Assembly (NCBI GenBank): GCA_964568875.1
Contig: CAZMSH010000012.1
Span: forward strand, 28,228 to 92,227
DNA from: an uncultured Rikenellaceae bacterium
GTDB lineage: Bacteria; Bacteroidota; Bacteroidia; Bacteroidales; VadinHA17
DNA length: 64,000 nucleotides
Reading direction: 5' to 3'
Each line of letters starts with the position of its first letter. Within the stretch, counting starts at the first letter, position 1. The position numbers were made by a program, and so were the translations under genes. Shown piece after piece: positions 3,753 through 61,328 of this stretch. The notes under the pieces were generated by a model. It had not been told where the DNA came from and did no database searches. It saw only the letters and a program-made list of their open reading frames with translations.

Positions 3753-4709
3753 TTACCAGATGGTCCAGGAGACACCTATTTCAAAGGGATTTAACACAGG
3801 GCCTTTCCCTTCCCGGAACAATGGTGTCATATAGTATGTTGCATAGAGATTAATGTCGTCGTATCCGGCTCTGGCTGTAAATCCATAGCGCAGCATGTTA
3901 AGACTGAAATCACCCTGTTCCTTTACTTTCTGCTTGCCTTCCCAGTAATAAACGGTCTTGGTGTTTGAACCTATCTTTACTGCTCCGATCGGTCCTGCGG
4001 CAAGATTAACATATCTTGAACCTGCCGGTATCTGCAGCTCCAATAGTAAGGGAACGGAAAGATACCTTGTGGCAAGCTTGCTCTTTTCATAAACAATACC
4101 TTCAGGCGGATACAATGGTTCTATAATGCCGTTTTCCTGCTTTGTGATACTGTTGTTACCCTCAAAGAAATAATTATTCATGTTATAACCTATTCCTGAT
4201 ACCAGACCAATACGCCTGGTAATACCTATGTTAACCTGGGCAAAATTGAGGTTTACATTTATTGACTTGCCAGAGTTCAACGTCATATAGTAATCTTCAT
4301 CAGGCAGGACCATGCTGTAGTCTGAGGTCAGAAAATTATTGAACCCTATTTCTATTCCGCCCCAGCTACCCTTAAAGTAGGTTCTGGGCCTTCTACCCTC
4401 ATCAGATCTCCCGGAATTAAACTCTCTTGAGAAAATTTCTTCCTCAGAATCTTCCTCAAATTTTTTTACCGATACTCTCCGTCCTTCCAGCATCTCGAGG
4501 ATTTCGATTCCGCGGTTACCTATACGCAGTGATTGTGATTCGGGTGTGCCTTTAAATGAAAGCATCTCTTCGCCTAAAGTTATTCTTGTGTCAGTTATAA
4601 CTTTTTCTGACCCGGGCCTTGTCGATGCAACAAGTTTGGTCGAATCATCCTGAGTGATTGCAGGGTAAGCCAGGGTAAATGCTACTGTTAATAAAACAAA
4701 TCTTTTCAT
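3753..4709 (-). CDS. outer-membrane beta-barrel protein
   Basis: Signal peptide MKRFVLLTVAFTLAYPAITQ, alternating-hydrophobic beta strands, and a C-terminal aromatic signature VSWTIW. It is the third gene of the sigma/anti-sigma operon. Confidence 0.6.
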   Translation of the reverse strand: MKRFVLLTVAFTLAYPAITQDDSTKLVASTRPGSEKVITDTRITLGEEMLSFKGTPESQSLRIGNRGIEILEMLEGRRVSVKKFEEDSEEEIFSREFNSGRSDEGRRPRTYFKGSWGGIEIGFNNFLTSDYSMVLPDEDYYMTLNSGKSINVNLNFAQVNIGITRRIGLVSGIGYNMNNYFFEGNNSITKQENGIIEPLYPPEGIVYEKSKLATRYLSVPLLLELQIPAGSRYVNLAAGPIGAVKIGSNTKTVYYWEGKQKVKEQGDFSLNMLRYGFTARAGYDDINLYATYYMTPLFREGKGPVLNPFEIGVSWTIW

Positions 4710-4772
4710 GGTATTATTAAGATTAAAAATTTAACTGGTTTTGATTGTGGGACGAACTATCCCTTGAAAAAG

Positions 4773-5834
4773 TTACTGGTCAGCTGTGATTTTTTTTACC
4801 GGAGCCTGAAATTTGATAAGTCTTGAGCTGAACATTACTGCCTCAGGATCATCCCGGCCCTCTTTTACGAATTCAAGGTTCATATCCCAGCCGAGAAGCT
4901 TGTTGACTCCTGTAATTCCCGCTGATGCTATCTCATAGGCCTTTATGGGTGAGCGATCAGGAATCTCTTCTCCCAGTATTCTTTCACGGAATGCCATTGC
5001 AAGATAATTACGCAGTGTCAGAGGGCCCTGATATTCCACCGGAGCTGTGGTGTAGATGTCTGTAAGACCCGGGGTCTCAAAATTTCCTGCTATCCTTACC
5101 ATAGCAGGTTCACCTGCCAACGGCATGATAATTTTCCTCTCAATAACCTCCGGTTTCTCAACCTCTGCTGCTTCAATCAATGTCTCCGCCACCCTTACAA
5201 TTTCAACCTGGGATTTCTGCGGTTCAACCGGAGAGATTGTTTTGTCTGCCGGAATTTCTTCTTCCTGTTTCTGTTCCTGTTCCTGCACCGTACCGCTGAC
5301 GGAGGCTGTAACTTCGGATGCAGGAATGACTGCCGGATCGGTTGAATTATTGGTCAGGGCTATTACAAGTATTGCCACTGAGGCTGCGGCTGCCATAACC
5401 AGGGTAGCCACTCTGGTCACCCTCACAAACGGGGTAACCCTTTTAAGGCCGTTCTTCAAAGGGTAAGAGATATCTTCTGCCGGGAGACGGAGCCTTTTAT
5501 ATAAATTATATGTTACAGCCCTCTTTTCATCGGCAAGCACAAAAGATTCAAACTCCTCCTGCTGTTCTGCGGTGAGATCGCCTTCTGCCGAGGCGATGCA
5601 CAGGTATTCAAACTGTTCTTCACTAAGGTCGGAGTAGCTTTTCAGCAGCCGGCTCTTGAAAGGGTATTTCTTCTCTGGCTGAGCAGAAATTACAGGTATA
5701 TCGCCCGTCAAGCTGTCGAAGAGACCGGGTTCCTCTTCAAGGAACCGGAAGAGCTCCCTGGTGCCCTCCTCGCTGAGACTGCCTGCCAGGTAGCGTTCCA
5801 TCAATTCTTCGATATGTTGCCTGCTCTTATTCAT
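4773..5834 (-). CDS. putative anti-sigma factor (single-pass membrane protein)
   Basis: It starts 4 nt after the sigma-factor stop. It has an N-terminal helical domain, one TM segment (VATLVMAAAASVAILVIAL) and an acidic/Pro-rich linker. Confidence 0.5.
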   Translation of the reverse strand: MNKSRQHIEELMERYLAGSLSEEGTRELFRFLEEEPGLFDSLTGDIPVISAQPEKKYPFKSRLLKSYSDLSEEQFEYLCIASAEGDLTAEQQEEFESFVLADEKRAVTYNLYKRLRLPAEDISYPLKNGLKRVTPFVRVTRVATLVMAAAASVAILVIALTNNSTDPAVIPASEVTASVSGTVQEQEQKQEEEIPADKTISPVEPQKSQVEIVRVAETLIEAAEVEKPEVIERKIIMPLAGEPAMVRIAGNFETPGLTDIYTTAPVEYQGPLTLRNYLAMAFRERILGEEIPDRSPIKAYEIASAGITGVNKLLGWDMNLEFVKEGRDDPEAVMFSSRLIKFQAPVKKITADQ

Positions 5835-5838
5835 TACT

Positions 5839-6324
5839 TTACACTACTGCCTCTATTGTGCCGATATATCTTTTAAGCTCCATCCGGCCCCTGTATATGC
5901 TTATTTTTACCTGTGCTTCACTCATGCCTGTTATCTCTCCGATCTCCTTGTAACTGTAGCCTTCATAGTCGCGAAGCATTATCACCGATCTTTGCTGCTC
6001 CGGCAGCCTGGCGAGAGCCTGGTTGAGAACCTCGGAAAGGTCTGTATAGGAACCTTCATAATAAAGCTCCCTGTCATTATGTTCTCCGGTCAGCACCATT
6101 TTTGATTCCCGTCTCAGCATATCAATCATCTGGTTGTAAGCCGTTGTGAAAAGCCACGACCTGGCCACCTTGTAATCTATCTCCGCAACATGCATCCACA
6201 GCTTTTCAAAGCTGTCCTGCACCACATCAGACGCACGGTCACCATCCCTGAGGTTTTTGAGGATAAACCTGTATACCCCGTCAGAATACTCTTCAACAGC
6301 TTTATTGTACTCTTTTACTGTCAT
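5839..6324 (-). CDS. ECF-type RNA polymerase sigma-70 family factor
   Basis: 161 aa. Region 2 reads DVVQDSFEKLWMH and region 4 contains an HTH (YSYKEIGEITGMSEAQVKISIYRGR). Confidence 0.85.
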   Translation of the reverse strand: MTVKEYNKAVEEYSDGVYRFILKNLRDGDRASDVVQDSFEKLWMHVAEIDYKVARSWLFTTAYNQMIDMLRRESKMVLTGEHNDRELYYEGSYTDLSEVLNQALARLPEQQRSVIMLRDYEGYSYKEIGEITGMSEAQVKISIYRGRMELKRYIGTIEAVV

Positions 6325-6390
6325 AATCCGGATTACAAAACTGAGACGTATTAAGAGACGGGAAAGTTACAAAAAAGATGCAGCAATATT

Positions 6391-6467
6391 CAGTTATCAG
6401 TTATCAGTTATCAGGTATCAGGTATCAGGTATCAGGTATCAGGTATCAGGTATCAGGTATCAGGTCA
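6391..6467. repeat. tandem heptanucleotide array (CAGTTAT)3(CAGGTAT)7 plus CAGGTCA
   Basis: Counted directly. CAGTTAT starts at 6391, 6398 and 6405. CAGGTAT starts at 6412, 6419, 6426, 6433, 6440, 6447 and 6454. A degenerate unit starts at 6461. Confidence 0.95.
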
Positions 6468-6543
6468 TACTGAATACCGCATACCCCATACCGAAGTCTG
6501 CAAACCTTAAACTTTTAATCGTTAATCGTAAAACTTATATCCC

Positions 6544-8139
6544 CTATAGCATCTTATACACCTTAACCCAGTCGATCTCCATGTTTGCTACTGTACCAAG
6601 CTGGGTGCTGGTGCCGCCTGCGAGAGATATATACATCGGCTCCTGTGGAACATTGCCGGTTTGCCTGAAGACCTCTTCACCGTTCACTTTCCATACAAGC
6701 TTGTCGGGTGTCCACTCAAGGGTATAGATATAGAAACCACCTGAATATTTCCCGGGAAGAGATGATCTGGCGGATGATTTTTCAGAGCGGAAAATATCGA
6801 ACCAAACCTTGCCCTTGCCAGTGCGGCATATGTCAATATGCGGTGTCATAGTGTCTCCAAGAAGCCAGAATGCATTTTTGGCAGATGGATTATCGAGTTT
6901 TATCTTGGCAGAAAAGATTCCGTACTTCTGGCGGAAACTGGCACCTGTATTTATCTGCCCTGACGTATATGCAAATTCCCTTTTTACAAATCCTGATGAA
7001 GGGATCCATACCTTGCCTTCTTTCTTTTCAGGCTTGGTGGTGATTGTCAGTACAGAGCTGCGTACCGAGAAATTGCTCGCCGGAGTATGAATATGCAGAT
7101 CGCCATCAAGGGAATAGTTGTCTTTGAGCAACTTTTCTCCCCAATAGTAGCTTGTGAGCCATTTTTTATCATTAACACCGGTTTCATCAAAGTCGTCGCT
7201 GAAGGTAAGCTCTCTTGTCTTAAGAATATCGAACTTGTTTGAATCCTTTACCTTGAAATACCATACTATGTCATCGCTTTTCTTAAGGGTTTCATATTCC
7301 TGTAACTGGGCGAACATCTCTGTCTTTTCAAATCTCTTCTTGTCGAGAAGGTAGTTCTTTCTTTCAACGAATTCCTGTGATGCAACATAGTCCTTTAGCT
7401 CCTCATACCTGGCAAACATTGCCGACCCGTCTATCTTCTTGAAGTTTGCGTACTCCTTTGATTTCAGGAATGCATAGTACCCTTTTATTTCTGGTGAGGC
7501 TTTCAGACTGTTGTATTCCTGCAGCTTAGCATACTCTTCTGAATCCTTGAAGGTTATGGGTTTCATGTTTTTCTTTGTCAGGAACTCCTGGCTTGTCACA
7601 AATGCTTCGAGTTCCCTGAACCTTTCAAGTCTGGGTGAGCCCTGGTGTTTGTCGGGTTTCTTTACCTCGGGTGATTTCTTCAGTGTCTTGTACTCAAGGA
7701 ATTTTCTGTACTCATCACTCTGTTTGAATGTTATTGGCTTCATCTTCTGCTTCTGCCTGAATGCAGGAGTGGAGATAAATTTCCCGAGTTCTTCAAAATT
7801 TCTGATCTTTTCAGAGCCGTCAAGTTCCTTGAAACTTTTCAATTCAGCACTGTCACGGGTTTTGAGGTATAGTCTTATCTCCTTCGATTTTGAGAGAGAG
7901 TTGTATTCCTTCTCTTTTTGAAATTCAGTCGAACCAGCATATTTCAATGCTTCAATCTGTTTTTTCTCTTGCTGGAATCCTGCAGAATTTACCAGGGAGT
8001 CAAGTTCGTTATAACGTGCCAGTTCATTTGACTCCTTGAATGCCTGCAGCTTATTATACTCCTCAAGCAGAGCCTTTTCCTGTTGTTCGATTTTTGAAGT
8101 GGAAGGGATCATCCCCAGAGAAAACTTAAGACTTGCCAT
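6544..8139 (-). CDS. GH16-like (concanavalin-A-like) domain protein with four N-terminal ~60-70-aa repeats; catalytic motif degenerate
   Basis: The C-terminal ~220 aa has GH16-type blocks (NAFWLLGD, YTLEWTPDKLVWKVNG, EIDWVKVY). The ExDxxE position reads HIDICR (6823-6840). No signal peptide is visible. Confidence 0.6.
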   Translation of the reverse strand: MASLKFSLGMIPSTSKIEQQEKALLEEYNKLQAFKESNELARYNELDSLVNSAGFQQEKKQIEALKYAGSTEFQKEKEYNSLSKSKEIRLYLKTRDSAELKSFKELDGSEKIRNFEELGKFISTPAFRQKQKMKPITFKQSDEYRKFLEYKTLKKSPEVKKPDKHQGSPRLERFRELEAFVTSQEFLTKKNMKPITFKDSEEYAKLQEYNSLKASPEIKGYYAFLKSKEYANFKKIDGSAMFARYEELKDYVASQEFVERKNYLLDKKRFEKTEMFAQLQEYETLKKSDDIVWYFKVKDSNKFDILKTRELTFSDDFDETGVNDKKWLTSYYWGEKLLKDNYSLDGDLHIHTPASNFSVRSSVLTITTKPEKKEGKVWIPSSGFVKREFAYTSGQINTGASFRQKYGIFSAKIKLDNPSAKNAFWLLGDTMTPHIDICRTGKGKVWFDIFRSEKSSARSSLPGKYSGGFYIYTLEWTPDKLVWKVNGEEVFRQTGNVPQEPMYISLAGGTSTQLGTVANMEIDWVKVYKML

Positions 8140-27303: not shown

Positions 27304-27316
27304 AAACAGGCCTTAG

Positions 27317-27565
27317 GTGAGACTCGAGATCATAACACCAGACTCTGCGGTATATACAGGTAAGATAAGATCTGTAAGGGTCCCGGGAACAAAGGGGTCT
27401 TTTCAGATTCTCAGAGATCACGCCCCGATAATATCAACATTGGAGAACGGAACTGTTACTGTTGTGGATTTTCAGGGCAAACACCTCTTTTTTGAAATCA
27501 GCGGAGGTCTGATCGAGGTAAAGATGAATCGAATAATACTATTGGCAGAATCAGCTCATTTATAA
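27317..27565 (+). CDS. atpC: F0F1 ATP synthase subunit epsilon (short form, beta-sandwich only)
   Basis: GTG start. The 82 aa begin (M)RLEIITPD. The protein ends where the C-terminal helical hairpin of longer epsilon subunits would begin. Confidence 0.85.
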   Translation: MRLEIITPDSAVYTGKIRSVRVPGTKGSFQILRDHAPIISTLENGTVTVVDFQGKHLFFEISGGLIEVKMNRIILLAESAHL

Positions 27566-27569
27566 TATC

Positions 27570-29006
27570 ATGACTACAGAAGAATTCAGGAAATACGCCC
27601 ACGAACTTGTAGAGTGGATGGCCTGGTACATGGATAATGTTGAGACGTTTCCCGTTAAGTCACAGGTTAAACCCGGAGAAATATTTAAGGCTTTACCTGA
27701 TTCCCCGCCTCTGCAGCCTGAGAGTTTCGAGGCCCTGATGAACGATTTCAGGGATATACTGATGCCTGGCATCACTCACTGGCAGAGTCCGGGTTTTTTT
27801 GCCTATTTCCCGGCCAATAGCAGCCCCCCGTCAATACTCGCCGAGATGCTGACAGCAACAATAGGAGCTCAGTGCATGATATGGGAAACATCACCTGCAG
27901 CGGCAGAACTCGAAGAGAGAGTGATGAACTGGTTAAGAGACAGCATGGGGCTTCCGCAATCATTTGAGGGGGTAATACATGATACAGCATCAACGGCAAC
28001 ACTTACCGCAATTATTTCTGCCCGTGAAAAGATTACACGTTACAGTTACAATGAACTGGGTGCTGCAGGCAACGGCACACTCAGAATATATACATCAGCC
28101 CAGGCTCACTCTTCTGTTGAAAAGGGCGTTAAGATAGCAGGACTGGGAAGGAGGAACCTCGTTAAGGTAAGGACCAACGGAGATTATGCCATTGACACGG
28201 TAGACCTTGAGGAGTCTATAGTCAGAGACATTGCAGCCGGGTACAGACCTTGCTGTGTCATTGCAACAATAGGCACAACAGGTACAACAGCCGTTGATCC
28301 GCTGAACGAAATAGGTGAAATATGCAGTAAATATGACCTGTGGCTTCATGTTGATGCAGCCCTGGGAGGTACCGCCATGTTGTTGCCGGAGTTCAGGCAT
28401 CTTTCTGAAGGAGTCAGTCGTGCCGACAGCTTCGTATTCAATCCCCATAAATGGATGTTCACCAATTTTGATTGTTCTGTGTACTTTGTTAAAGACGCCG
28501 CACACCTGATAAATACTTTTGAAATATTGCCCGAATATTTAAAAACACGTACCAGAGGCCAGGTAAATGATTATCGCGACTGGGGTATTCCTCTCGGACG
28601 AAGGTTCAGGGCTCTCAAACTGTGGGCAGTTATCAGGTGTTATGGTCTTGAAGGCCTGAGAACAAAAATAAGAAACCATATAAACCTTGCCGCAGGGCTT
28701 TCACGGCAGATTGCTTCAGATCCATCATTTGAACTTGTTACCCGGCCGGTTTTCAATCTGGTCTGTTTCAGGTTTGCGCCCCAGAGCCTCGATCCGCTGA
28801 GATATAATGAATTGAATGAAAAACTTAACCATACGGTTAACGACACCGGCAAGATATACCTGACTCATACCGTTCTGGATGGAAACTATATACTAAGGAT
28901 GGCTGTATCACAGACTAATGTCGCTGAAAGACACGTGAATGAAGCATGGGACATCATCAGGGAGAAATCTGAGGAAATCCTGATCTCTTTCGATCGCCGA
29001 CGCTGA
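27570..29006 (+). CDS. group II PLP-dependent decarboxylase, aromatic-L-amino-acid decarboxylase-like
   Basis: It has the DDC-type N-terminus (HWQSPGFFAYFPANSS, SPAAAELE) and the PLP-lysine motif NPHKW. It starts 4 nt after the atpC stop. Confidence 0.85.
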   Translation: MTTEEFRKYAHELVEWMAWYMDNVETFPVKSQVKPGEIFKALPDSPPLQPESFEALMNDFRDILMPGITHWQSPGFFAYFPANSSPPSILAEMLTATIGAQCMIWETSPAAAELEERVMNWLRDSMGLPQSFEGVIHDTASTATLTAIISAREKITRYSYNELGAAGNGTLRIYTSAQAHSSVEKGVKIAGLGRRNLVKVRTNGDYAIDTVDLEESIVRDIAAGYRPCCVIATIGTTGTTAVDPLNEIGEICSKYDLWLHVDAALGGTAMLLPEFRHLSEGVSRADSFVFNPHKWMFTNFDCSVYFVKDAAHLINTFEILPEYLKTRTRGQVNDYRDWGIPLGRRFRALKLWAVIRCYGLEGLRTKIRNHINLAAGLSRQIASDPSFELVTRPVFNLVCFRFAPQSLDPLRYNELNEKLNHTVNDTGKIYLTHTVLDGNYILRMAVSQTNVAERHVNEAWDIIREKSEEILISFDRRR

Positions 29007-37787: not shown

Positions 37788-38018
37788 TTATCTGCACTCC
37801 CACTGTGTGGTTAGAGAACCTACAACGACAGGTGGCGTTGCCAGAATAATTGTAAGATCAGCTCCGCAATACTCAGTCTCGGATGTTTGATTAATAATAT
37901 CGCCATCGTCGTAGGTAACCTGCTTGCAGAGTTTGCAGTTCTGGAAAAGACTCTCACACGAGGAAAGAGAAATTGCCATCAGAATAAAACCGGCTGCATA
38001 TAGAACGATTCTCTTCAT
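37788..38018 (-). CDS. small Cys-rich lipoprotein, paralog 1 (76 aa)
   Basis: Lipobox LSSC. The mature ~56 aa carries four further Cys (QNCxxCK, YC, WECR). A gapless alignment by eye shows about 50% identity to the next gene. Confidence 0.65.
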   Translation of the reverse strand: MKRIVLYAAGFILMAISLSSCESLFQNCKLCKQVTYDDGDIINQTSETEYCGADLTIILATPPVVVGSLTTQWECR

Positions 38019-38053
38019 AATCAGGTATTGGGTATTTAGTTAAAATAAGGGTG

Positions 38054-38284
38054 TTATCTGCATTCCCATTTTGTTGTCTGCGATCCGTTTATAATCGGCT
38101 GCTTCGCCAGTATTTCGGCCAGTTGTTCATCGCAGTAAACCGACTCCGGATACTCCTGGAAAACCTCATTGTTGTTATAGATGACCATCTTACATGTCAT
38201 GCAGTTTTGCAGCAGCAATTCACAAGAGTTGACTGAGACGGCAACAAGGATGAAAAAGATTGCATATGCCACTTTTCGTTTCAT
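38054..38284 (-). CDS. small Cys-rich lipoprotein, paralog 2 (76 aa)
   Basis: Lipobox VNSC, with the same Cys pattern and the same C-terminal TTxWECR as paralog 1. Confidence 0.65.
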   Translation of the reverse strand: MKRKVAYAIFFILVAVSVNSCELLLQNCMTCKMVIYNNNEVFQEYPESVYCDEQLAEILAKQPIINGSQTTKWECR

Positions 38285-38304
38285 AGTCTGTAACTATTAT
38301 ATAT

Positions 38305-38312
38305 CAAAGATA
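38305..38312 (-). promoter_or_regulatory. Bacteroidota-type -7 box TATCTTTG (minus strand)
   Basis: The plus-strand sequence CAAAGATA reads TATCTTTG on the minus strand. It lies 20 nt upstream of the ATG at 38284 and just downstream of the M14 terminator. Confidence 0.45.
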
Positions 38313-38344
38313 AGAAGCTTTTTCTTTACAAGCATCAGAGCCAT

Positions 38345-38391
38345 AAATATTAATAAAGGAAATCCCTCTTCTTTCCGGGAAGAGGGATTTC
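38345..38391 (-). terminator. rho-independent terminator after the M14 gene pair
   Basis: A perfect 13-bp stem, GAAATCCCTCTTC pairing with GAAGAGGGATTTC (38359-38391), has a 7-nt loop. On the minus strand it is followed by CTTTATTAATATTT. It lies 23 nt past the stop at 38414. Confidence 0.7.
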
Positions 38392-38413
38392 TGCTCTGCA
38401 ATAAGATTGAAAT

Positions 38414-45984: not shown

Positions 45985-46000
45985 GTAAGTAGAAAGGTAC

Positions 46001-46063
46001 CAGGTGCCAGGTATCAGGTATCAGGTATCAGGTATCAGGTATCAGGTATCAGGTGCCAGGGTT
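46001..46063. repeat. tandem heptanucleotide array CAGGTGC-(CAGGTAT)6-CAGGTGC-CAGGGTT
   Basis: Counted directly. CAGGTAT starts at 46008, 46015, 46022, 46029, 46036 and 46043, flanked by CAGGTGC at 46001 and 46050. Confidence 0.95.
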
Positions 46064-46083
46064 AAAAAAAGGAGTGTTATTTT

Positions 46084-47496
46084 ATGGAAAATTATGACTT
46101 TGATTTTTCAGCAGGCGATCGGCGCAGGGCCTGGAATTATCTTATCGATAAACTTGAACGTCATTACAGTGATCCCTCACAGGTGAGGGTAGCGCCACCC
46201 CTCGACCCAGAGGTTGTCCGCGACTATTGTGCTGTTGATTTTAATACTCCAGTGCCGCCGAACGATGCCATAGACTATGTTACAGCCGGCCTCGATCAGT
46301 TTATTGTTCACACTTCACACCCCGGTTATTATGGCCTTTTCAATCCACGTCCGGCATTTGCCGGAATAATTGCAGATGCCATAACCGCCGTCTATAATCC
46401 TCAGTTGGCAGCCTGGTCGCACTCTCCGTTTGCTGTCGAGGCTGAGAATCATGTTATCAGGGAGTTTGGGCGCAAATTCGGATATAAGCCTGATTCAATT
46501 GACGGCACTTTTACCAATGCCGGTGCCGAGGCAAACCACACTGCTCTTCTGATGGCCCTGACACGATTTGTTCCCGGTTTTGCTGAGGAGGGACTTTCGG
46601 GGTCTGACAGCAGGCCTGTCATCTATGTGTCGCAAGAGAGCCACCACTCTTTTGTAAAGGCAGCAGGACTCTCAGGCATGGGTCGCCGAAGTGTGCGGAA
46701 TATTCCGACGCTGAAATCATATGCAATGGATGTAGCTGCTTTGCGAAAGCAGGTCAAAGACGATATCGCAGCCGGGTTTTTGCCGGTAATGGTTGTCTCG
46801 ACTCTTGGTACAACGGGCATGGGGGCTATAGACCCTGTTAAAGAGATAGATAGTGTGGCCCGTGAATATAATATGTGGCATCATGCTGATGCTGCCTGGG
46901 GCGGTGCAGTTGCTCTCTCTTCCAGATACCGCCATCTTGTCGATGGAATTGACCTTGCCGACTCTATAACATTTGATGCGCATAAATGGATGTCTGTCCC
47001 AATGGCTGCCGGTATGATTATAACACGTCACCCCGGCGCGCTGCTGGAGACATTCAGAATTACGGCTGACTATATGCCCAGAGAGGGTAAAGAGTTTGAG
47101 ATCATCGATCCCTTTACTCACTCCATTCAGTGGTCGAGGCGTTTTACCGGACTGAAACTGTTTATGGCTATGCTCATATATTCCTGGGATGGCTACGAAA
47201 GGGTTATTAACCGTCAGTTTGAAACAGGTGATTTGCTGCGGAATAAACTTAAGGATGAAGGGTGGAATATATACAACAGCACTAAACTGCCGATAGTTAA
47301 CTTCGGACTTTCAGACCTGGAAGACAATCAGGAAAAGATGACACGTTTCTGCCGCAGGGTCACCGACAGCGGGAAAGTGTGGATATCGGTTTACAGTACA
47401 GGAGGCATAAACACCCTGAGAGCCTGTATAACAAACTATAATACAACAGAAAAAGACCTGAATATTCTACTGCAGACACTGAGTAAGGAAAGGTGA
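46084..47496 (+). CDS. group II PLP-dependent decarboxylase (substrate unknown)
   Basis: Motifs HPGYYGLFNP, GTTGMGAIDP and the PLP-lysine motif DAHKW. It is only distantly related to the decarboxylase at 27570. Confidence 0.75.
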   Translation: MENYDFDFSAGDRRRAWNYLIDKLERHYSDPSQVRVAPPLDPEVVRDYCAVDFNTPVPPNDAIDYVTAGLDQFIVHTSHPGYYGLFNPRPAFAGIIADAITAVYNPQLAAWSHSPFAVEAENHVIREFGRKFGYKPDSIDGTFTNAGAEANHTALLMALTRFVPGFAEEGLSGSDSRPVIYVSQESHHSFVKAAGLSGMGRRSVRNIPTLKSYAMDVAALRKQVKDDIAAGFLPVMVVSTLGTTGMGAIDPVKEIDSVAREYNMWHHADAAWGGAVALSSRYRHLVDGIDLADSITFDAHKWMSVPMAAGMIITRHPGALLETFRITADYMPREGKEFEIIDPFTHSIQWSRRFTGLKLFMAMLIYSWDGYERVINRQFETGDLLRNKLKDEGWNIYNSTKLPIVNFGLSDLEDNQEKMTRFCRRVTDSGKVWISVYSTGGINTLRACITNYNTTEKDLNILLQTLSKER

Positions 47497-47498
47497 AG

Positions 47499-47680
47499 CG
47501 GTATCCGGTGAACGGTAGACGGTAAACGATGCCCTGCGAACTGGGCTCCCGACCTTCGGTGCAGGACTCCGCTTCGCTCCGCCTGATCCCTGAGTCCCGC
47601 ACTCATAAAACCTCTCTACAGCAAGGAGTTAGCCTTTGTAAATCTTAAATCGTAAATCTTAAATCGTAAATCTTATATCC
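47499..47680. repeat. decayed heptad-periodic spacer ending in (TAAATCT/TAAATCG) x5
   Basis: A single uninterrupted 7-nt register runs from CGGTATC CGGTGAA CGGTAGA CGGTAAA (47499-47526) to TAAATCT TAAATCG TAAATCT TAAATCG TAAATCT TATATCC (47639-47680). Confidence 0.7.
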
Positions 47681-47688
47681 CTTTAGAG

Positions 47689-57986: not shown

Positions 57987-58939
57987 TGAAAACAATAACC
58001 CAAAGCCGTCATAAACAGGAGATTATCGGCATTTTTGAATCGATAGATTTCGAAAGGATAATCGACCACCCCAACATACTTATCTCAGCCAATTTCTGGG
58101 AACCAGAGAGATACCATGCTGCCCGGGTCTGCTATCGGATAATGAGATACATCGACGATCTTATTGATAATCATAAGGCCGAACGCGGAGCCATTGCCCC
58201 TCACGAAAGGGAACAGTTTACTGCCGATGTGGAAAAATGGCTGCAGATATTCCTCGATTCCGGCAGGAATGACCCCCTGCAGGCCGGACTGATGGAAACG
58301 ATTGAGCGATTCCGCATTCCCCTCTGGCCCCTTGAAGACTTTGCAAGATCAATGATTTATGACATCAATAACGACGGATTCCAAACGCTGCAGGCATATA
58401 TCGACTATTCCAGGGGTGCTTCGGTTGCTCCTGCAAGCATCTTCGTGCATCTGAGCGGCCTTCGAAGCAATGGCGGCCATTACCTGCTCCCGGAGTTTGA
58501 CGTGCGCGACACCGCAACCCCCTGCGCAATGTTCAGCTACCTTGTGCATATAATTCGAGACTTTCAGAAAGATCACCGTAACAACCTCAACTACTTTGCA
58601 GAAGATATTATGGCGAAGCACGGTCTTACACGGTCAGGACTACGAAGGATGGCATTCGGGGAGAATCTGTCGGAGGGATTCAGGTCAATGATGAGGGAGT
58701 ACATGGCTCTCGCTGACAGGTACAGGATTGAGACACTACAGGTAATGGAACGTGTTTGCCCTATGCTTGGTCCCCGCTATCGCCTCAGCCTCGAGATAAT
58801 ATTCAATCTCTACCTGATGGTATTCGAACGTATCGATCCCGACAACGGAAGCTTTACAACCTCTGAACTGTTACCCACACCGGAAGAGACAAAAACCAGA
58901 GTCTGGCAGGTAATCGAAACTTCAAAATGGGATTTCTAA
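57986..58939 (+). CDS. crtB: squalene/phytoene synthase family protein (CrtB/CrtM-like, divergent)
   Basis: Asp-rich motifs YIDDLID and IRDFQKD. It is translationally coupled to crtI through a TAATG overlap. Confidence 0.7.
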   Translation: MKTITQSRHKQEIIGIFESIDFERIIDHPNILISANFWEPERYHAARVCYRIMRYIDDLIDNHKAERGAIAPHEREQFTADVEKWLQIFLDSGRNDPLQAGLMETIERFRIPLWPLEDFARSMIYDINNDGFQTLQAYIDYSRGASVAPASIFVHLSGLRSNGGHYLLPEFDVRDTATPCAMFSYLVHIIRDFQKDHRNNLNYFAEDIMAKHGLTRSGLRRMAFGENLSEGFRSMMREYMALADRYRIETLQVMERVCPMLGPRYRLSLEIIFNLYLMVFERIDPDNGSFTTSELLPTPEETKTRVWQVIETSKWDF

Positions 58940-58966
58940 TATCTGATATCTGATATCTGATATCTG
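58939..58966. repeat. tandem heptanucleotide array (ATATCTG)4, which reads (CAGATAT)4 on the minus strand
   Basis: Units start at 58939, 58946, 58953 and 58960. The array fills the 33-nt gap between two convergent stop codons. Confidence 0.9.
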
Positions 58967-58972
58967 AAATCA

Positions 58973-60137: not shown

Positions 60138-61259
60138 TTATTCAGTTAGTTTTCTATTCTCTGTCATTGCCAGTCCGGGAAATCTCCTGAGCATTTTTTG
60201 TGCTATCGGAACACTCCGGGTGGTATAACCCGGGGCGGTGGTTTTTATTACACCCTCCTCAAACCATAACGGATCAATTAGGGTTTTTGTTTTGGCCTCG
60301 CCTTTAATGTTGCCGTGGTAGGAAGTCCACATCCTGCCGTCGGGGCCTGTAAACACCTGGTTATGACCTGCGTTGATCAGCGGGGACTGAGGATCCTCGA
60401 TTACCACTCCTTCTCTGACGATGTATGACTTTCCATCCCTTGAATAGGCCCCGAATAGCGGGTTCTTGTCATATTTTTTCCAGGGACCGTAAACATTCGT
60501 TGCCGTTGCGTATCCTACCGCATACCCCATTGTCCATGAAGAGTAGAAGAGGTAGTAGGTTCCTTCATGCTTTATGACGTGTGCCCCTTCAATACCGTTC
60601 GAATCCCATGCGCTGCCGGAACTTTGTGAGAAAAGCTCCACGGGTTCCTCCTTAAGGGTTACCGTTACCGTATCGAGTTCTGCTACGAATATTTTGTGAA
60701 TGTTTGTCCATCCGTTATTGAAGAAGGCGTAAACCCTGTTGTCTTCATCCTCGAAAAGGGAGATATCGTTTGAAGGAAATGATGTTAATGGTTTTTCGTG
60801 TGTTCTGACCGTATAGGGACCTGTTATTTCAGATGCTGTTGCCACACCGCATGCATGAAAGTGCTTCATGTCAGGATCAGCATAACTGCCGCTGTTATTC
60901 TGACAATTGAAGGTGAGATACCAGGTGCTGCCGATCTTCCTCAACTCCGGAGCCCAGAAACGGTCCCGGTACCAGACATTTGAGTCGAGGGCAAAAGCAT
61001 CGATAAGCAGCTTTTCGAATTTCCAGTTCCTCAGATCATCAGACGAGTAAAGCTTTACTCCGGGATTGGGTCCACCCCAGAAGGGTTCACAGGTGCCGAC
61101 TGCATAGAACCTGCCGTCATGCGGAATAATATGGGTATCCCTGAATTCAAGCCCGTTTAAGGGGTTGGTCCAGGTGAATTCCTTCTGAGTGCATCCCTCC
61201 ATGATAAAACTGAGCAATGCTATTGAAGTGATAAAACATAGTCTGGTGGTGGTTTTCAT
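60138..61259 (-). CDS. glycoside hydrolase family 43 protein
   Basis: I prefer the ATG at 61259 (MKTTTRLCFITSIALLSF signal; verified). GH43 blocks FWAPEL and EGAHV are present. Confidence 0.8.
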   Translation of the reverse strand: MKTTTRLCFITSIALLSFIMEGCTQKEFTWTNPLNGLEFRDTHIIPHDGRFYAVGTCEPFWGGPNPGVKLYSSDDLRNWKFEKLLIDAFALDSNVWYRDRFWAPELRKIGSTWYLTFNCQNNSGSYADPDMKHFHACGVATASEITGPYTVRTHEKPLTSFPSNDISLFEDEDNRVYAFFNNGWTNIHKIFVAELDTVTVTLKEEPVELFSQSSGSAWDSNGIEGAHVIKHEGTYYLFYSSWTMGYAVGYATATNVYGPWKKYDKNPLFGAYSRDGKSYIVREGVVIEDPQSPLINAGHNQVFTGPDGRMWTSYHGNIKGEAKTKTLIDPLWFEEGVIKTTAPGYTTRSVPIAQKMLRRFPGLAMTENRKLTE

Positions 61260-61263
61260 AATA

Positions 61264-61328
61264 AACAGGTTTTGTTGGCAGGGATCATATGAACAGGTTA
61301 TGTTGGCAGAGATCATATGAACAGAGTC
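61264..61328. repeat. 28-bp tandem direct repeat, 2.3 copies
   Basis: AACAGGTTTTGTTGGCAGGGATCATATG (61264-61291) is followed by AACAGGTTATGTTGGCAGAGATCATATG (61292-61319) and AACAGAGTC. The two full units match at 26 of 28 positions. Confidence 0.9.

Follow-up and report, generated by a model that had tools for sequence, protein, structure and literature searches.

We analysed a tract of heptanucleotide repeats in a 64-kb stretch of DNA (hereafter the window) from an uncultured Rikenellaceae bacterium. The tract lies between a gene with a GH16 domain and an operon for an extracytoplasmic function (ECF) sigma factor, a putative anti-sigma factor and an outer-membrane-like protein. We found that the tract differs by whole 7-bp units between samples, that its repeat unit differs from one species to the next, and that it stops at the edge of a conserved block that carries an ECF-type promoter motif and precedes the sigma gene. 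The tract belongs to a known class, the heptanucleotide microsatellites, which includes a TAACTGA type already published from Bacteroidetes, and it is probably an ordinary member. We consider it likely to be a near-neutral microsatellite that varies by slippage in an unconstrained part of the spacer, outside the conserved promoter. A function that depends on its sequence is improbable.

The seed would have been one CCTGA-type heptamer already in place, and replication slippage would then have made the tract grow, shrink and re-homogenise in 7-bp steps. The product would be a hypermutable tract that reads, in the direction of the genes, GACCTGA(TACCTGA)7-8(TAACTGA)3, with older, decayed heptads behind it. 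It would occupy the unconstrained part of the spacer, between the GH16 stop codon and a self-contained, conserved ECF-type promoter predicted to drive the operon. It would be one case of a build-up of period-7 arrays, lineage-wide and in many phyla, where non-coding DNA tolerates them, mainly by gene 3' ends. At most, the array would alter the distance and the insulation between the upstream gene and the promoter.

The heptad tract and the conserved block before the sigma gene

The spacer (6325-6543) is 219 nt long, and both flanking genes are on the minus strand. In the direction of the genes, the GH16 stop codon is followed by GGGATATAAGTTTTACGATTAACGATT..., four GTATGNN units, GACCTGA, (TACCTGA)7, (TAACTGA)3, 66 nt and the sigma ATG; the sequence from GACCTGA through (TAACTGA)3 is the minus strand of 6390-6466. 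Tandem Repeats Finder (TRF) found a period of 7 with 10.9 copies, 98% matches and a score of 131 at 6390-6465. That is, the copies are arranged head to tail and the array is far longer than expected by chance, as in other heptanucleotide long simple sequence repeats. For the spacer as a whole, the period-7 signal had z = 13.2 relative to shuffled sequences. An earlier note, made from the letters of the window, had placed these heptads on the plus strand, with CAGTTAT at 6391, 6398 and 6405, seven CAGGTAT units starting from 6412 to 6454 and CAGGTCA at 6461, followed after a 3-nt slip by ten more 7-mers (6471-6540). All of these positions were exact, and the heptads of the array are truly in phase. 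The decayed stretch (6468-6543) matched itself at lag 7 with a frequency of 0.62, compared to 0.14-0.35 at other lags (z = 6.8), and none of 2000 shuffles scored as high. The note had taken the whole spacer to be built from heptads, and this holds for 153 of the 219 nt. A period-7 signal is absent from the 66 nt nearest the sigma ATG (6325-6390; z = 0.1).

We compared this locus to the orthologous loci of seven related species, whose sigma factors are 96, 94, 91, 89, 83, 79 and 78% identical to that of the window. The last ~58 nt before the sigma ATG aligned without gaps in all eight species, in the pattern TGCATC..TTTTTGTAACTTTnnCGTCTnT.....CGTC......TGTAnT.......ATG. Upstream of this block, the sequences are unrelated between species. 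The block carries the ECF-type motif TGTAACTTT-N14-CGTC, i.e., TGTAAC-N17-CGTC. ECF promoters have a GAAC- or GTAAC-like -35 element and a CGTC-like -10 element 16-17 nt apart, and they are typically autonomous and autoregulated. There are only two matches to GTAAC-N16-18-CGTC in the 64 kb (1.3 are expected by chance), both in the sigma operon and on the same strand. In each of the eight species, GTAAC-N17-CGTC precedes both the sigma gene and the third operon gene, and at both sites GTAACTTT and CGTC are kept and the 17-nt spacer is fixed in length and free in sequence. Conservation of this kind at two sites is the footprint expected of a cognate autoregulated ECF promoter: both elements stand before the sigma gene itself and before a candidate member of its regulon, judged against the generally known ECF consensus. 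We therefore predict that this block contains the cognate, autoregulated promoter of the sigma operon. The third gene seems to have its own sigma-dependent promoter, because the second motif lies directly before it and is conserved there in every species.

In the direction of the genes, the end of the array precedes the predicted -35 element by 19 nt, and the arrays of the species compared stop at the edge of the block. The earlier note had identified the sigma factor as an ECF sigma factor, in agreement with our Pfam matches (Table 1), and had argued that, barring read-through, its promoter must lie inside or beyond the array. The conserved motif in the 58-nt block indicates instead that the promoter is downstream of the array, nearer the sigma ATG. 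The note had also proposed that each gain or loss of 7 bp would rotate upstream elements on the DNA helix. This idea needs a conserved upstream element. None was found among the species compared, and the relatives that lack an array have only 50-110 nt of unrelated sequence there.

We also considered a Bacteroidetes sigma-A promoter (TTTG ... TAnnTTTG) in the same block and rejected it. TTTG and CAGTTTTG are 26 nt apart, ~6 nt too far; the ECF motif is a better fit, and it is this motif that is found conserved at both sites. A scan of 6200-6700 found no sigma-70 consensus promoter and no intrinsic terminator, but a scan of this kind tells nothing about Bacteroidota or ECF promoters. As RNA, the spacer folded no better than shuffled sequences on either strand (z = -1.2 for the gene strand and -1.5 for the other), and a search of the spacer against Rfam gave only a sub-threshold chance match to a plant microRNA.

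Two side observations concern the sequence of the tract. A 20-mer, GGGATATAAG[A/T]TTTACGATT, occurs twice in the window (6524-6543 and 47662-47681, both minus), compared to 0.02 occurrences expected. Each copy touches, or lies no more than 10 nt from, the stop codon of one of two unrelated minus-strand genes (GH16 and an M1 peptidase), and each leads into GATTTAC/GATTAAC heptads. The 20-mer may be a small dispersed element of gene 3' ends or a seed common to both arrays. In addition, the antisense strand of TACCTGA and TAACTGA arrays has no stop codon in any frame; on the gene strand, TGA appears every 21 nt in each of the three frames. The stop-free antisense strand accounts for a spurious open reading frame (ORF) of 156 codons that spans the array (6257-6727, plus strand), and short antisense genes have been called across such arrays in public assemblies (L006 and L156-L158).

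Changes in unit number and unit sequence

We found natural variants in the number of units, that is, differences between samples or strains. Five assemblies from other samples of the same species (L001-L004 and L006) have eight TACCTGA units, compared to seven in the window. Four of these (L001-L004) span the full spacer, which is 226 nt long and identical to that of the window once one unit is deleted. Five further contigs (L005, L007-L010) end inside or at the array. Two scans of a metagenome collection that lacks these samples, one for a flank-gap-flank pattern and one for an exact junction, yielded no further alleles. Length changes by whole units between close relatives are the signature of slippage, and natural variation in unit number is also what characterises the hypermutable repeats of contingency promoters. 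We infer that the array changes length by slippage.

The four sister species with the most similar sigma factors (89-96% identical) each have an array with a different unit, and each array adjoins the same conserved block. In the 96% species (L153 and L154), the array is (CCCTGAA)5 or (CCCTGAA)2, depending on the sample. The 94% species (L163) has (CAGGGTA)n, interrupted by the end of the contig. The 91% species (L155-L158) has GACCTGA/GCCCTGA/GTCCTGC heptads in higher-order repeats of 35 and 42 nt, which are interrupted by a scaffold gap, and the 89% species (L159-L162) has GGCACGG/GGCGCGG or GGTACGG units. Four samples of this last species, represented by the Rikenellaceae metagenome-assembled genome (MAG) GCA_964446435.1, have 9, 5, 4 and 3 units in spacers of 217, 189, 182 and 175 nt, with identical flanks. 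Copy number is thus variable within two of the sister species (96% and 89%) as well as in that of the window, and the polymorphism that the earlier note had suggested looking for is present in all three.

The 83, 79 and 78% species have no array. Their spacers are 130, 110 and 168 nt long, identical in four samples of each. Where the other species have arrays, the 83% and 79% species have a single GCCCTGAACCC or GACCTGT. Single copies of GACCTGA or GACCTGT are also found at the corresponding position in L155 and in L168, which has no array, and the boundary unit GACCTGA of the window is a candidate for the proto-unit. The window has GGTATGC or GGTATGA units at the position of the decayed part in common with L153 and L159-L162. 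Single proto-units in the distant species that lack arrays, together with the differing arrays of the sister species, indicate that the tract arose in one subclade. It appears to have grown from a proto-heptamer and to have undergone repeated mutation and re-homogenisation since then.

Other features of these relatives are worth recording. In the sigma spacer of L153, the heptad arrays are separated by ~380 nt (1016-1397) of longer tandem repeats with units of 21 nt (5.9 copies) and 93 nt (3.0 copies), a stretch annotated there as an ORF of 141 aa. The arrays of L159-L162 fall into two allele families, each at two lengths. On the gene strand they read (GGGGCAC/GGGGCGC/GGGGTAC)n, a G4N3 pattern that is canonical for quadruplex formation and stands immediately before the ECF promoter.

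Period-7 arrays elsewhere in the window and in other phyla

Period 7 is not confined to the sigma spacer. In a search of the 64 kb for tandem arrays with periods of 4-15, only 7 and its multiple 14 were found. Four of the 34 spacers had a period-7 z above 6: 6325-6543, 45985-46083, 47497-47688 and 58940-58972 (Table 1). The comparison of intergenic and coding DNA suggested in the earlier note, made here for the window, gave an excess of period 7 in intergenic DNA and none in coding DNA; after removal of these arrays, intergenic DNA retained a residual excess at lag 7. All four spacers with arrays contain the 3' end of a gene, and arrays are absent from all 13 divergent spacers. At these numbers, the preference for gene 3' ends over divergent spacers is suggestive only.

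Table 1. Features of the window that bear on the heptad tracts
Feature	Position	Strand	Remarks
Third operon gene, 318 aa, outer-membrane-like	3753..4709	minus	orthologues match Pfam OMP_b-brl_2
Second ECF-type promoter motif, GTAACTTTTTCAAGGGATAGTTCGTC	4751..4776	minus	between putative anti-sigma gene and third gene
Putative anti-sigma factor, 353 aa	4773..5834	minus	one membrane-spanning segment; proposed from position and topology; no match in a Pfam search
ECF sigma factor gene, 161 aa	5839..6324	minus	Pfam Sigma70_r2, Sigma70_r4_2, Sigma70_ECF
Conserved non-periodic promoter block (TGCATC...ATG)	6325..6382	minus	predicted -35 TGTAAC, 6366-6371; predicted -10 CGTC, 6345-6348
(TAACTGA)3, promoter-proximal units	6390..6410	minus	CAGTTAT x3 on plus strand; heptamer is that of the published TAACTGA repeat
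(TACCTGA)7, perfect array, polymorphic part	6411..6459	minus	direct reading and TRF
GACCTGA, degenerate boundary unit	6460..6466	minus	direct reading
Decayed older heptads	6467..6543	minus	GTATGNN type, 6466-6493; ATTAACG type, 6515-6529; 20-mer GGGATATAAGTTTTACGATT, 6524-6543, adjoining GH16 stop codon
GH16-domain gene, upstream of the operon	6544..8139	minus	stop codon adjoins the heptad tract
(CAGGTAT)6 flanked by CAGGTGC units, sister array	45995..46054	plus	between two plus-strand genes; TACCTGA is antisense to both
CGGTNNN heptads	47497..47528	plus	directly after decarboxylase stop codon; convergent spacer
(GATTTAC/GATTTAA)n	47638..47679	minus	directly after M1 peptidase stop codon
(TATCTGA)5.9	58931..58971	plus	fills 33-nt convergent spacer (58940-58972); z = 7.3

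As a second comparison, we examined both spacers that flank the decarboxylase gene (46084-47496), which are unrelated to the sigma spacer; one of the two is convergent and has no promoter. A species with an 87% identical decarboxylase has a shorter, related (CCAGGTA)2 at the position of the upstream spacer. Directly after the stop codon it has (CGGTATC)n, which differs among samples, and several contigs end there. A relative with a 77% identical decarboxylase has no heptads in either spacer. Arrays behave in this way at other loci as well as at the sigma locus. In the few contigs that span the other three arrays of the window, we saw no variation in copy number; the (TATCTGA)5.9 array was unchanged in four such contigs.

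Several side observations concern other places in the window. The (CAGGTAT)6 array ends only 30 nt before the ATG of the pyridoxal phosphate (PLP) decarboxylase, so close that a promoter hardly fits between, and the promoter argument of the earlier note would suit this locus (45995-46054) better than the sigma locus. Between the two heptad blocks of the convergent spacer is a G+C-rich, non-periodic segment (47529-47637, ATGCCCTGCGAACTGGGCTCCCGACCTTCGGTGCAGGACTCCGC...) with no match in Rfam. A 28-nt tandem repeat (61256-61324; 2.4 copies, 90% matches) covers the 5' end of the minus-strand gene 60138-61316 and the adjoining spacer. Three stretches of 508-791 nt (27304-28094, 28449-28956 and 37788-38413) have no ORF of at least 90 codons on a crude map, no tRNA and no Rfam match, and one of them (28449-28956) has a weak period-7 signal (z = 2.1). 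For the window as a whole, there was no Rfam match at the gathering score and no tRNA.

Similar arrays are present in distant bacteria. We scanned a collection of species-representative genomes for at least four tandem TACCTGA units and found more than 116 stretches; this and the following counts are for the matches listed, with genes placed by crude ORF calls, and the species of the window is not among these matches. They come from Bacteroidota, Balneolia, Gemmatimonadota, Acidobacteriota, Planctomycetota, Chloroflexota, Myxococcota, Desulfobacterota, Pseudomonadota, Verrucomicrobiota, Patescibacteria and Cyanobacteria. So wide a spread speaks for independent origins rather than horizontal transfer. 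Of 120 arrays, about 5 were inside ORFs and 32 were at contig ends. There was no bias in orientation in 50 co-directional spacers (27 forward and 23 reverse), and arrays were in 21 convergent and 12 divergent spacers. The 790 kb around these loci contain 87 further period-7 arrays of other units, compared to at most 6 arrays of any other period. Both in the window and at 116 loci from other genomes, then, arrays were almost entirely confined to non-coding DNA, within a wide excess of the same period. In viral contigs of IMG/VR, we found stretches of three units for TAACTGA (107), TAGCTGA (45), TACCTGA (17) and TATCTGA (15), compared to 9, 4, 3 and 0 for four permutations of TACCTGA with the same composition.

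Tandem heptamers in intergenic DNA have been described before. The dispersed, non-coding STRR elements of heterocystous cyanobacteria have the units CCCCAGT, TTGGTCA and CAACAGT. They are alike in their arrangement, but none of these units is arrayed in the window, where the units are TACCTGA, TAACTGA, TATCTGA, GATTTAC and CGGTATC, and the phylum differs: the nearest named relatives of the window are Bacteroidales and Rikenellaceae MAGs. The earlier note, which knew of no description in Bacteroidota, had overlooked a close match. Direct repeats of the heptamer TAACTGA were found between genes in Beggiatoaceae, Cyanobacteria and five Bacteroidetes, with up to 43 copies (MacGregor 2015, PMC4679880), and (CAGTTAT)3 is (TAACTGA)3 on the gene strand. 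The three units at 6390-6410 exceed the two tandem intergenic units that define those repeats. The likeness extends to their surroundings: the published spacers hold direct repeats of other heptamers, in larger assemblages in Gramella, Aequorivita and Elizabethkingia, and close relatives have shorter spacers without repeats (PMC4679880), as do relatives of the window. There are also differences. The dominant unit here is TACCTGA, which appears in PMC4679880 only as a non-repeated single-base variant in BOGUAY, and the phylogenetic range given there is narrow, in contrast to the many phyla in which we found at least four TACCTGA units. In BOGUAY and F. litoralis, the repeats are forward and from a few to ~43 nt from the start codon, which is the basis of the idea that they regulate translation. 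The tract in the window is also forward, but between its end and the ATG there are 66 nt that include the predicted promoter, and it resembles the looser pattern of Gramella and Aequorivita.

Among the long simple sequence repeats of prokaryotes, heptanucleotides are the most frequent class, and they have been attributed to polymerase slippage (Mrazek et al. 2007, as cited in PMC4679880). The tract has the same properties: head-to-tail 7-nt units, far above chance, in non-coding DNA, to which they are confined because 7 is not a multiple of 3. Nothing essential sets it apart; the lineage and the unit are new. Genome-wide intergenic G-rich heptamers (GGGNATC and GGGGA(C/T)T) with variable unit number have been reported from Xanthomonas and Nostoc (Rehm et al. 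2015, PMC4692102). They occur preferentially in spacers of aligned ORFs and close to stop codons, and they are under-represented in divergent spacers. Placement in the window is the same, by gene 3' ends and in none of the divergent spacers. Those repeats can form G-quadruplexes, with a tract of three or four G's per unit and at least four units. The units in the window have a single G, or GG on the other strand, and without G-tracts no quadruplex is possible; only (GGGGCAC)n of L159-L162 has them. The best-studied regulatory 7-bp repeat, (ATCTTTC)n of hmw1A and hmw2A in Haemophilus influenzae, is transcribed in the 5' untranslated region (UTR) and acts through an RNA hairpin that is cut by RNase III (PMC12721329, PMC2424069). 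Like it, the tract has a 7-bp unit upstream of a gene and varies in number, apparently by slippage. Unlike it, the tract is upstream of the predicted -35 element and folds no better than shuffled sequence on either strand.

Alternative explanations and what the tract means

It is possible, if rather unlikely, that the tract is a contingency locus, a rheostat in which slippage of the heptads tunes the ECF sigma operon and gives heritable, reversible variants in expression. Its length could alter DNA geometry or contacts just beyond the -35 element, or it could alter read-through from GH16 into the operon. Tuning by a repeat is known from nadA of Neisseria meningitidis, which has a TAAA tract upstream of its promoter, and from hmw1A, whose expression is inverse to the number of 7-bp repeats (PMC12721329). 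A rheostat would fit the hypervariability of the tract within three related species, its retention against the promoter block in all five closest species despite full turnover of the unit, and the lack of a detected terminator between GH16 and the promoter. It does not fit the position of the array. In contingency promoters, the repeat is placed where its length alters the promoter; here it is neither between the -35 and -10 elements nor, as predicted, in the 5' UTR. There is no conserved upstream site to re-phase in the species compared, and ECF promoters typically act autonomously. Furthermore, equally variable arrays are found at promoter-less gene 3' ends in the same lineage, and some relatives have no array at all. 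A bolder form of this idea is that the length of the tract matters and that this is why it stays beside the ECF promoter, as a rheostat for the output of the sigma operon in environmental, non-pathogenic Bacteroidales, and more broadly that the TANCTGA family is perhaps propagated or recognised by a shared factor and is not the product of length-7 slippage alone. We consider this form improbable.

The remaining alternatives fare worse on the same observations. TAACTGA and TACCTGA could be sites for a nucleic-acid-binding protein in post-transcriptional control, as MacGregor hypothesised for the TAACTGA repeats of Beggiatoaceae (PMC4679880). The enrichment of TANCTGA heptamers over their permutations in IMG/VR is consistent with this, but the repeats here, being upstream of the predicted promoter, would be in the sigma mRNA only with read-through. 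Sister species have unrelated heptads, e.g., GGCACGG, at the same place, TACCTGA has no preferred orientation in co-directional spacers and is antisense at the second array of the window, and we give binding sites only a very slim chance. A 3'-end element of the GH16 gene, such as a terminator or insulator, for instance an unstructured Rho-loading site with more C than G, that replaces the hairpin terminator of a relative is slightly easier to imagine and still very unlikely. All four arrays of the window adjoin the 3' end of a gene, the array-less relative L172 has a hairpin terminator after GH16 where none was found here (scan of 6200-6700), the gene-strand RNA is unstructured, and C exceeds G in the unit. 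Orientation relative to the upstream gene is inconsistent, however, both in the window and across phyla, the units of L159-L162 are G-rich on the sense strand, and the unit is not conserved. There is practically no chance that the array is an artefact of assembly or a chance pattern. Assemblers do struggle with such arrays, and many contigs end in them, but at 77 nt the array is below typical read length, and the same flanks and array were recovered in at least five independent assemblies from other samples, which already refutes an artefact; the TRF score and the z of 13 for the whole spacer speak against chance.

Some of our results weigh against a near-neutral microsatellite as well. The array adjoins the promoter block in all five closest species, which fits common descent but would fit equally well with selection for a variable tract at that place. 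The 3' end of GH16 lacks an intrinsic terminator here and has one in L172; because of this, read-through into the sigma operon across the array is possible, and the length of the array could matter. The excess of convergent over divergent spacers (21:12) is not statistically significant. Finally, the sequence preference for TANCTGA in IMG/VR hints at something that slippage of length-7 units does not by itself explain. It is still most likely that the tract is a slippage microsatellite with little or no effect on fitness, in a part of the spacer that tolerates it.

The locus is a natural example of the birth, turnover and death of a microsatellite, with a single proto-heptamer in distant relatives, differing units in five sister species and whole-unit changes within species. 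Intergenic heptamer arrays, the published TAACTGA type and its TACCTGA variant among them, reach across far more phyla than was apparent from the 2015 description. As a practical matter, such arrays break metagenome assemblies and produce spurious antisense ORF calls. If the length of the array does tune the ECF sigma operon, then contingency regulation by simple sequences would no longer be limited to host-adapted pathogens but would also include free-living Bacteroidales.

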